The notes under the pieces: model-generated
What the model was told of the DNA's origin: nothing
The model's input: only the letters and a program-made list of their open reading frames with translations
Database searches by the model: none
Source of the DNA: a phage
DNA length: 853 bases
Reading direction: 5' to 3' (one strand)
Sequence record: AB218927.1
Made by a program: the position numbers and the translations under genes
In this document: positions 28 through 810 of the stretch, one piece after another
Layout of the letters: every line of letters begins with the position of its first letter
Numbering within the stretch: position 1 is the stretch's first letter

Positions 28-28
28 G

Positions 29-79
29 CTTCACTTAGCGAATGCATTAGCCTTAATCAACCAACGCCTGAAAAGGTAA
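29..79 (+). CDS. 3' end of maturation (A) protein gene, 5'-truncated at the cloning junction (C-terminal residues LHLANALALINQRLKR, stop TAA 77-79)
   Basis: Open frame from the insert boundary to TAA at 77-79, ending 16 nt before the coat ATG, which is the expected position for the A-protein terminus in levivirus gene order (mat-coat-lysis-rep). I cannot confirm the C-terminal residues from memory, so this call is positional. Confidence 0.45.
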   Translation, partial: LHLANALALINQRLKR

Positions 80-83
80 TTAC

Positions 84-87
84 GGAG
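84..87 (+). promoter_or_regulatory. Shine-Dalgarno-like GGAG for the coat gene, 8 nt upstream of ATG 96
   Basis: GGAG at 84-87 with appropriate spacing to the coat start codon. Confidence 0.5.
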
Positions 88-95
88 TTAGCCAT

Positions 96-488
96 ATGGC
101 AACTTTACGCAGTTTCGTACTCGTCGATAATGGCGGTACGGGGAATGTTACTGTCGTTCCTGTTAGCAATGCCAACGGCGTCGCTGAGTGGCTTTCTAAT
201 AACTCGCGCAGTCAAGCTTATCGCGTGACTGCCAGTTATCGTGCGTCAGGCGCGGACAAGCGCAAATACACCATCAAACTCGAAGTACCGAAAATCGTTA
301 CTCAAGTTGTTAATGGTGTCGAGCTGCCTGTTTCCGCATGGAAGGCTTACGCCTCTATTGACCTGACCATCCCTATCTTTGCTGCAACCGATGATGTGAC
401 CGTTATTTCCAAGTCACTCGCCGGCCTGTTCAAAGTTGGGAACCCTATCGCTGACGCTATCTCTTCTCAGAGTGGCTTCTACGCGTAA
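96..488 (+). CDS. cp: Coat (capsid) protein of a GA-type group II ssRNA coliphage, complete, 130 aa
   Basis: Translation MATLRSFVLVDNGGTGNVTVVPVSNANGVAEWLSNNSRSQAYRV...TIPIFAATDD...GNPIADAISSQSGFYA matches the phage GA coat protein as I recall it, nearly residue for residue. It also shares the conserved levivirus coat motifs seen in MS2 (FVLVDNGGTG, ANGVAEW, NSRSQAY, ELTIPIF, GNPI). ATG 96, stop TAA 486-488. Confidence 0.95.
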   Translation: MATLRSFVLVDNGGTGNVTVVPVSNANGVAEWLSNNSRSQAYRVTASYRASGADKRKYTIKLEVPKIVTQVVNGVELPVSAWKAYASIDLTIPIFAATDDVTVISKSLAGLFKVGNPIADAISSQSGFYA

Positions 489-679
489 TGGGTCTGAAAG
501 CAAAGCATAAGGAAAACCTATGTTCCGATTCACAGAGATCGAAAAGACTCTATGTATGGATCGCACTCGCGATTGTGCTGTCCGATTTCACGTCTATCTT
601 CAGTCACTGGATTTGGGGTCTTCTGATCCTCATTCTCCGGACTTTGATGGACTTGCCTACCTTCGTGATGAATGTTTAA
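488..679 (+). CDS. L: Lysis protein L (single-gene lysis protein), complete, 63 aa; start ATG 488-490 overlaps coat stop TAA 486-488
   Basis: The ORF sits in the position of levivirus L, spanning the coat-replicase junction in a third frame. It has a basic N-terminal region (KAKHK...RSKR) followed by a hydrophobic transmembrane-like segment. RSKRLYVWIALAIVLSDFTSIFS aligns with MS2 L RSSTLYVLIFLAIFLSKFTNQLL, including the conserved Leu-Ser dipeptide (codons at 578-583). Confidence 0.85.
   Translation: MGLKAKHKENLCSDSQRSKRLYVWIALAIVLSDFTSIFSHWIWGLLILILRTLMDLPTFVMNV
504..524 (+). promoter_or_regulatory. Translational operator RNA hairpin (coat-protein binding site) containing the replicase start codon
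   Basis: AGCAUAAGGAAAACCUAUGUU folds as follows: upper stem G511-C518 and G512-C517, 4-nt loop AAAA (513-516), bulged A510, lower stem A509-U519, U508-A520, A507-U521, C506-G522 (plus G505-U523 and A504-U524). This has the same architecture as the MS2 operator ACAUGAGGAUUACCCAUGU, with the replicase AUG (520-522) in the 3' arm of the lower stem and the SD-like AGGA in the 5' arm and loop. Confidence 0.8.
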
Positions 680-810
680 CTAAACATCCCTCACTTGGAG
701 ACAGTAATTCGGACGCACGCCGTAAGGAATTGGCATATGCCAAACTTATGGATAGTGATCAAAGATGCAAAATCCAAAACAGTAACGGATACGACTACTC
801 TCATATCGAG
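520..810 (+). CDS. rep: RNA-dependent RNA polymerase (replicase beta subunit), N-terminal ~97 codons, 3'-truncated at the insert/vector junction
   Basis: ATG 520-522 lies 6 nt after GGA 511-513. Translation MFRFTEIEKTLCMDRTRDCAVRFHVYLQSLDLGSSDPHSPDFDGLAYLRDECLTKHPSLGDSNSDARRKELAYAKLMDSDQRCKIQNSNGYDYSHIE aligns with the MS2 replicase N-terminus (SLCIDLPRD; GSGDPHSDDFTAIAYLRDELLTKHPTLG; AIAKLREANDRC). The frame has no stop through position 853, so it is absent from the supplied ORF track. Phage-derived sequence ends at about 810. Confidence 0.9.

Follow-up and report, generated by a model that had tools for sequence, protein, structure and literature searches.

In phage GA, a group II F-specific RNA coliphage, lysis is reported to be read exclusively by ribosomes that have reached the end of the coat gene, via the sequence UAAUG (Inokuchi et al.; EMBO J 2000, as summarised by the same authors in PLoS One 2023, PMC9955659). 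Deletion and substitution analyses of GA are described there as having revealed no sequence that allows lysis expression independent of coat, and free ribosomes were excluded (PMC9955659). The reporter constructs used for GA were lacZ fusions and not the lysis protein in infection. In these reporters, mutation of the upstream AUG to AUU abolishes reading of the downstream open reading frame (ORF), as does the change of UAAUG to UAAua when ribosome recycling factor (RRF) is active; the downstream ORF is read by approximately 25% of the upstream ribosomes (PMC9955659). An AUG placed 4 nt upstream of UAA gives about 20% of the expression obtained with AUG 1 nt upstream, and downstream offsets from -1 to +4 nt result in about equal expression (PMC9955659). 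The step that follows termination is disputed. The GA authors argue for RRF release and local rebinding after termination (PMC9955659), whereas work on phage fr led to a model in which the bound ribosome scans in both directions (cited in PMC12548453 and PMC10666635).

Phages MS2 and fr have a homologous lysis protein, L, whose gene likewise bridges coat and replicase in another frame and is coupled to coat termination. In contrast to GA, the L start in these phages is found inside the coat gene, 50 nt (MS2) or 38 nt (fr) before its end, and not on the stop codon. The model for MS2 also includes an inhibitory hairpin that is opened by the terminating ribosome (PMC12548453). Bacterial gene pairs of the trpB-trpA type resemble the GA junction in that stop and start codons overlap, by -1 or -4 nt in such termination-reinitiation pairs, and in that downstream translation depends on upstream termination. 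Spacings of -4 and -1 nt are the commonest genome-wide (PMC10666635). However, most cellular stop-start pairs keep a Shine-Dalgarno (SD) sequence inside the upstream gene, whereas the GA junction has none, and the downstream product in GA is a toxin whose level has to be kept low rather than a stoichiometric partner.

Origin and gene arrangement of the cloned fragment

The stretch of DNA analysed here, referred to as the window, is 853 nt long. It is recombinant, combining a cloned segment of a known phage with vector sequence, and every feature in it is accounted for. A megablast search of 50,697 phage records returned biological matches confined to bases 28-810, and each of the six genomes matched is that of a group II F-specific RNA coliphage (Emesvirus japonicum). 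Identity was 98.1% to BZ13 strain DL20, 96.8% to GA (two records, X03869 and NC_001426), 96.8% to BZ13 strain DL10, 91.1% to BZ13 strain T72 and 89.4% to KU1, over alignments that span 768-783 nt; the GA, DL20 and DL10 figures refer to bases 28-810. Group II membership is also seen in the gene order, maturation-coat-lysis-replicase, with the lysis gene bridging coat and replicase, which matches the type genomes. Bases 28-810 thus very probably represent cDNA from the middle part of the genome of a GA/BZ13-type phage, a judgement held jointly with the coupling explanation given below.

The flanks of the insert consist of vector polylinker. A restriction-site scan located SacI (4), KpnI (10), SmaI (14) and AscI (20-27) sites in bases 1-27, and PacI (811), XbaI (820), SalI (826), PmeI (833), SbfI/PstI (840/841) and SphI (847) sites in bases 811-853; no phage match was found before base 28 or past base 810. 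The insert therefore lies in a pUC-type polylinker, into which it was cloned at AscI and PacI, and which we take to be that of pNEB193 on both sides. No plasmid match for the window was found in PLSDB. Position 810 is consequently an insert end set by cloning, with the PacI site beginning at 811, and is no natural boundary.

Relative to GA, DL20 and DL10, the insert has 15-26 point differences, most of which are synonymous. Fourteen of the 15 differences from DL20 are synonymous, the remaining one being N116D in the coat protein; the coat protein differs from that of GA at T59A, V79G and D120E. Two bases, G505 and C607, are private to the window among the sequences compared. No engineered mutations are evident in the insert, which looks like a natural isolate rather than an engineered sequence, and the preponderance of synonymous differences from DL20 is what would be expected if a natural variant had been shaped by purifying selection. 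An exact match to the coat protein has been deposited for phage TL2, species BZ13 (BAE54353.1/BAE54362.1).

The insert contains the end of the maturation gene, the complete coat and lysis genes and codons 1-97 of replicase, and all genes, signals and hairpins described here are on the + strand. The 3' end of the maturation (A) protein gene, at 28-79, comprises in translation the last 16 codons (...LHLANALALINQRLKR) and the stop codon TAA (77-79), and in GA, DL20 and DL10 this coding sequence stops at the corresponding position. The coat gene occupies 96-488 and has an ATG start, 130 codons and TAA at 486-488. Its product scored 132 bits with PF01819 (Levi_coat), above the Pfam gathering score, and matched the GA capsid in the PDB (1GAV, E = 3e-79). 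The lysis gene (488-679, ATG start) encodes 63 codons followed by TAA in the +2 frame relative to coat. The third gene, at 520-810, encodes the replicase beta-subunit and begins 32 nt after the coat stop. It is cut by cloning at 810, with an open frame that continues via the polylinker to 853, and its translation scored 82.7 bits with PF03431 (RNA_replicase_B), again above the gathering score. PHROGs agrees with the Pfam placement of all three products. The antisense ORFs of 25-50 aa that also occur in the window face known genes of a plus-strand RNA phage.

These coordinates coincide to the base with those proposed in the first-pass annotation of the window, which had placed coat at 96-488, lysis at 488-679 and the replicase start at 520. 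The three genes lie in three different frames (start positions modulo 3 of 0, 2 and 1 for coat, lysis and replicase respectively), and the first 53 or so codons of replicase lie inside the lysis gene (520-679, 160 nt), as had been described. The description of three overlapping reading frames applies only in part: the overlap of lysis and replicase is substantial, but coat has a single base in common with lysis and none with replicase, and no position is read in three frames. The shared base is A488, at once the end of the coat UAA (486-488) and the start of the lysis AUG (488-490), so that 486-490 reads TAATG with an overlap of -1 nt. The same junction is present in GA, DL10 and DL20.

Alignment to the annotated GA genome, which had been suggested as a check, confirmed this arrangement. 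With window base 28 equal to base 1257 of GA (X03869), the annotated GA coat (1325-1717), lysis (1717-1908) and replicase (1749-3347) genes map exactly, and the DL20 and DL10 records annotate coat, lysis and replicase at matching relative positions. Gene order, frames, UAAUG, the 63-codon lysis gene and the replicase spacing are shared by the window with GA, DL20 and DL10; unlike these genomes, the window is a truncated plasmid clone.

Nucleotide diversity was calculated as the mean pairwise value among 11 group II sequences. It was 0.073 in coat, 0.067 in the part of replicase that is read alone (680-810), 0.022 in the part of lysis that is read alone (488-519) and 0.020 where lysis and replicase overlap (520-679). 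The doubly coding stretch is therefore about 3.5 times less diverse than the singly coding coat and replicase-only stretches, and its low diversity is the pattern to be expected where every base is under constraint from two frames.

A putative coat-protein binding site, the replicase operator hairpin, was identified at 504-524 from the predicted fold and from the GA annotation, and encloses the replicase AUG. In the predicted shape, 504-508 and 520-524 form the lower stem, and the hairpin further has an unpaired A, an upper stem of two base pairs (GG/CC) and a loop of AAAA; the equivalent segment of the GA record, 1733-1753, is labelled 'pot. binding site coat protein'. The predicted fold has a free energy of -4.9 kcal/mol (z = -1.89). 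Compensatory changes were seen in two of the seven operator pairs across six relatives including MS2, a small sample, with A-U replaced by G-C in three of the six sequences and G-C by U-A in one. The private G505 of the window converts an A-U pair at the base of the operator to G-U. A scan of the whole window against Rfam gave no match at E values up to 1, and the hairpin was judged by fold, annotation and covariation.

The lysis gene, its product and its start

The lysis product belongs to a recognised family. It scored 30.6 bits with PF11125 (Phage_MS2_lysis) against a cut-off of 25 (E = 3.3e-7), matched PHROG 8450 (E = 2e-32) and showed 43% identity to MS2 L in an alignment of 51 residues (BLASTP, E = 1e-10). 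MS2 L has 75 residues compared with 63 in the window. The protein is identical to those of JP34 (P34702) and DL20. L-like lysis proteins are described as having a basic N-terminus, a hydrophobic stretch and a Leu-Ser dipeptide at the end of that stretch (PMC10229422). In the window, residues 1-21 hold six K/R and two D/E, residues 20-39 and 34-61 have hydropathy values above 1.5, and the single Leu-Ser dipeptide, at residues 31-32, aligns with the LS of MS2 L. The predicted product thus fits the domain pattern of an L-like single-gene lysis protein. A nearly identical protein, that of KU1, is reported to lyse cells without stopping net peptidoglycan synthesis (preprint, PMC10614894).

The lysis frame is closed upstream by TGA at 452-454. 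Because no ATG, GTG or TTG occurs in frame from there to 488, AUG488 is the only start for the full-length lysis product. Alternative starts were considered and rejected: there are none upstream in frame, and the start-type codons downstream begin only at codon 30, so that a product initiated there would lack the N-terminus and the greater part of the first hydrophobic stretch.

The strength of each start signal was scored as the best duplex between the 3' end of 16S rRNA and the 20 nt upstream of the start, and the same score was computed at every position of the insert. The coat gene is preceded by GGAG at 84-87, 8 nt before its AUG and invariant in a six-sequence alignment, which gives a duplex of -6.1 kcal/mol, a value reached by only 7% of insert positions. 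The replicase gene is preceded by AAGGA at 509-513, 6 nt before its AUG; here the duplex (UAAGGA) amounts to -6.2 kcal/mol, reached by only 3% of positions, and in GA, DL20 and DL10 replicase is annotated from this same start. Upstream of the lysis AUG, the best duplex is gapped, has an 11-nt spacing and reaches -2.7 kcal/mol, which is equalled or bettered by 40% of insert positions. The anti-SD pairing of the lysis start is at background level, in agreement with the earlier remark that no convincing SD sequence precedes it.

Probable coupling of lysis to coat translation

The first-pass annotation proposed that the lysis gene is read by ribosomes that finish the coat gene, and this proposal is supported by the published work on GA (PMC9955659). 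Two outcomes that bear on it are both in its favour, namely that annotated GA places the lysis start at the same base and that the GA work reports no coat-independent lysis expression. The window is identical to GA over 468-504, that is, for 18 nt before and 14 nt after UAAUG. For this reason the GA reporter results should transfer to the window, and we infer that the coupling behaviour of GA probably holds for the strain from which the window derives.

Taken together with the identity of the insert, termination-reinitiation at UAAUG is, with high confidence, the process that couples lysis to coat translation. The lysis gene lacks a ribosome-binding site of its own. Ribosomes that translate coat would stop at UAA (486-488), and a fraction of them would step back by one base and restart in a different frame at AUG (488-490) to make the 63-residue, presumably membrane-active, L-like lysis protein. 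In this way, the output of lysis protein would follow coat translation at a small and constant ratio. Replicase would initiate independently at AUG 520 from its own SD sequence, and would be shut off when coat protein dimers bind to the operator hairpin at 504-524.

A different role for the coat-translating ribosome has to be weighed against direct restart. Ribosomes that finish coat might melt RNA structure at 436-498, after which a free 30S subunit would initiate de novo at AUG488. A long irregular hairpin is predicted at 436-498, both in the fold of 440-540 and in the four UAAUG-type sequences taken together; the minimum free energy and consensus folds pair G490-G492 with C443-C445, and GCG at 483-485 with CGC at 449-451. 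This predicted hairpin contains 454-478, the equivalent of a feature of the GA record (1683-1707) that is annotated as 'pot. stem loop structure; pot. function in lysis gene control', within which an imperfect hairpin at the 3' end of coat is predicted at 456-476 (456-459 and 461-464 pairing with 469-476, loop UCUC). A model of this kind is also still discussed for MS2 alongside ribosome scanning (PMC12548453). However, the junction folds no better than shuffled sequence, exceptional stability being found neither for 440-540 (z = -1.48) nor for 452-500 (z = 0.07), and none of the 29 predicted junction pairs covaries among the four UAAUG-type sequences. Furthermore, there is no SD sequence to draw free subunits, and the GA authors report that no sequence was found to permit coat-independent lysis expression and that free ribosomes are excluded (PMC9955659). 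De novo initiation after unfolding is accordingly considered very unlikely. A structural gate on the lysis start, as modelled from these folds, is possible but unsupported. Within termination-reinitiation itself, the opening of structure by the terminating ribosome could still contribute to the lysis start, since the predicted long hairpin pairs G490-G492 with C443-C445.

Two further explanations dispense with coupling altogether. If free ribosomes initiated at AUG488 without any dependence on coat, the one-base overlap would reflect genome compaction only. AUG is the strongest start codon, and the bases just downstream, 491-503, are rich in A and have little structure in the predicted folds, both of which would assist such initiation; but the anti-SD pairing of the lysis start is no better than that of 40% of insert positions, and in the GA reporters the downstream ORF is not read without translation of the upstream one (PMC9955659). 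The probability left to uncoupled initiation is negligible. The same low standing is given to the idea that the ORF at 488-679, or its TAATG, is a product of chance or of cloning and engineering rather than a phage feature. The window is indeed recombinant, with polylinker at both ends, and by a rough estimate an open frame of 63 codons has a likelihood of about 5% in random sequence. This idea is refuted by the natural isolates GA, DL10 and DL20, whose genomes have the same junction and ORF, and the lysis product, besides scoring above its Pfam cut-off, matches the lysis proteins on record for JP34 and DL20 at every residue, with the differences of the insert from DL20 being almost all synonymous.

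The coat-lysis junction among relatives

UAAUG had been given in the first-pass annotation as the arrangement of group II phages of the GA type. As a GA-type arrangement this is correct, since TAATG is present in GA, BZ13-DL10 and BZ13-DL20, in all of which the annotated lysis gene begins with the final A of the coat stop. As a statement about group II, it stands for these three phages but not for KU1, T72 and five environmental contigs. In KU1, T72, three IMG/VR contigs and two metagenome contigs, the coat UAA is immediately followed by an insert of 18 nt, and the lysis start, which lies 18 nt further downstream, is UUG in six of these seven sequences and AUG in one contig (L017). The insert of KU1 and T72, GGCGUAGUUCUUCAGCAU, destroys UAAUG, and lysis begins from UUG; these phages are nevertheless like the window in species, in the lysis protein from residue 6 on, in the operator and in the replicase start. 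Together with the 3' end of coat, the KU1-type insert is predicted to form a hairpin of 7 bp without mismatches, whose loop holds the stop codon. The insert has already been published (Groeneveld et al. 1996, as cited in PMC12856241). The comparison drawn with MS2, in which L was said to begin about 50 nt upstream of the coat stop, is borne out by NC_001417, where coat occupies 1335-1727 and L occupies 1678-1905, an overlap of 50 nt.

When the last base of the coat stop is counted as 0, the lysis start lies at -49 in MS2, at -7 in L018 (junction AUGGCUAA), a more distant relative like L019, L020 and L021, and at 0 in GA (UAAUG) and in the MS2-like contig L020 (UGAUG). Further downstream, it lies at +1 in L019, where UAAGUG makes the two genes abut in the coat frame, at +13 in L021, where the start is preceded by an AGGAG of its own, and at +18 in the KU1-type sequences (UUG, or AUG in L017). 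Across these relatives the lysis start is always near the coat stop, as coupling would require. It is conceivable, though improbable on present judgement, that this natural series of offsets might discriminate between scanning by the bound ribosome and RRF release with rebinding, and that the lysis start might have migrated repeatedly around the coat stop. If this reading of the series is true, the window would be only one ordinary point in it.

Both the observation made on the window and its interpretation are correct, and both are already known, given that the junction is annotated in GA and has been tested by experiment. The occurrence of UAAUG in another cloned group II fragment adds nothing new to this, and its value lies in correct annotation. 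The coat-lysis UAAUG of GA is itself a textbook-grade model for ribosome restart after termination, and has been used since 2000 to study RRF.

Cloning vector at the ends of the window

The phage insert of the window (28-810) is bounded on both sides by cloning polylinker, with SacI-KpnI-SmaI-AscI sites at 1-27 and PacI-XbaI-SalI-PmeI-SbfI-SphI sites at 811-853. These flanks mark the window as the insert of a recombinant plasmid rather than a piece of native genome. We take both flanks to be the same strings as the polylinker of pNEB193, in which the phage plus strand would presumably oppose the direction of the lac promoter. The replicase gene, which starts at 520, is cut at codon 97 (base 810), and the polylinker contains no stop codon for this frame, which reads ...HIE-LIKSRVDCLNLQAC up to the window end (808-853). 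Since the frame is open through the polylinker, any expression would yield a replicase(1-97)-vector fusion peptide.

Variation in singly and doubly coding regions

Diversity is about 3.5-fold lower in the region encoding both lysis protein and replicase (520-679) than in the singly coding regions (96-487 and 680-810). The variable sites within 520-679 fall at all codon positions of both frames, without concentration at third positions. Two bases, G505 and C607, are found in the window alone among six aligned sequences. G505 lies at the base of the operator hairpin (504-524), where it turns an A-U pair into G-U, and C607 changes the amino acid in neither the lysis nor the replicase frame.

The coat-lysis junction in KU1-type sequences

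In the window, the coat stop and the lysis start share one base (UAAUG, 486-490). KU1-type sequences of group II carry an 18-nt insert 3' of the coat UAA, found in the relatives L003 (653-677), L004, L007, L008, L011 and L016. The first seven bases of this insert exactly complement the final seven of the coat gene, forming a hairpin (CUACGCC-UAA-GGCGUAG) with the coat stop codon as its loop, and lysis in these sequences starts at a UUG. The insert form is commoner than UAAUG in the IMG/VR and JGI data, with five environmental contigs carrying the insert and GA itself as the sole UAAUG match. In another KU1-type contig, L017 (OGVH01001890.1, about 375-400), the insert ends in ...CAGUAAUGG rather than the usual ...CAGCAUUGG. 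Unlike the other KU1-type inserts with UUG, L017 again has AUG as the lysis start, and a second UAAUG string lies 18 nt past the real coat stop. The replicase frame ends early in the environmental contigs L007 (IMGVR_UViG_3300019247_000248; after 134 codons) and L016 (OGVK01005982.1; after 305 codons). Misassembly, a defective genome or a chimeric contig could account for this.

Lysis starts in more distant relatives

The junction in L019 (OGVK01001857.1; coat identity 73%) is UAAGUG. Its 60-aa L-like ORF (1772-1957) shares the frame of coat and has a GUG start immediately after the coat stop, and stop-codon readthrough would therefore give a coat-L fusion. In L018 (about 1886-1893; AUGGCUAA), the lysis AUG is placed 7 nt ahead of the point where the coat stop ends. 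A 70-aa L-like ORF begins 13 nt past the coat stop in L021 (1649-1664), L013, L014 and L015 (coat identity 57%), and may be initiated independently, because AGGAG precedes its start. L020 (OGVH01003227.1; coat identity 63%), which encodes a clearly MS2-like L protein of 72 aa, has a UGAUG stop-start overlap (1198-1202), compared with the 50-nt overlap in MS2. Thus, the one-base overlap is not confined to group II.
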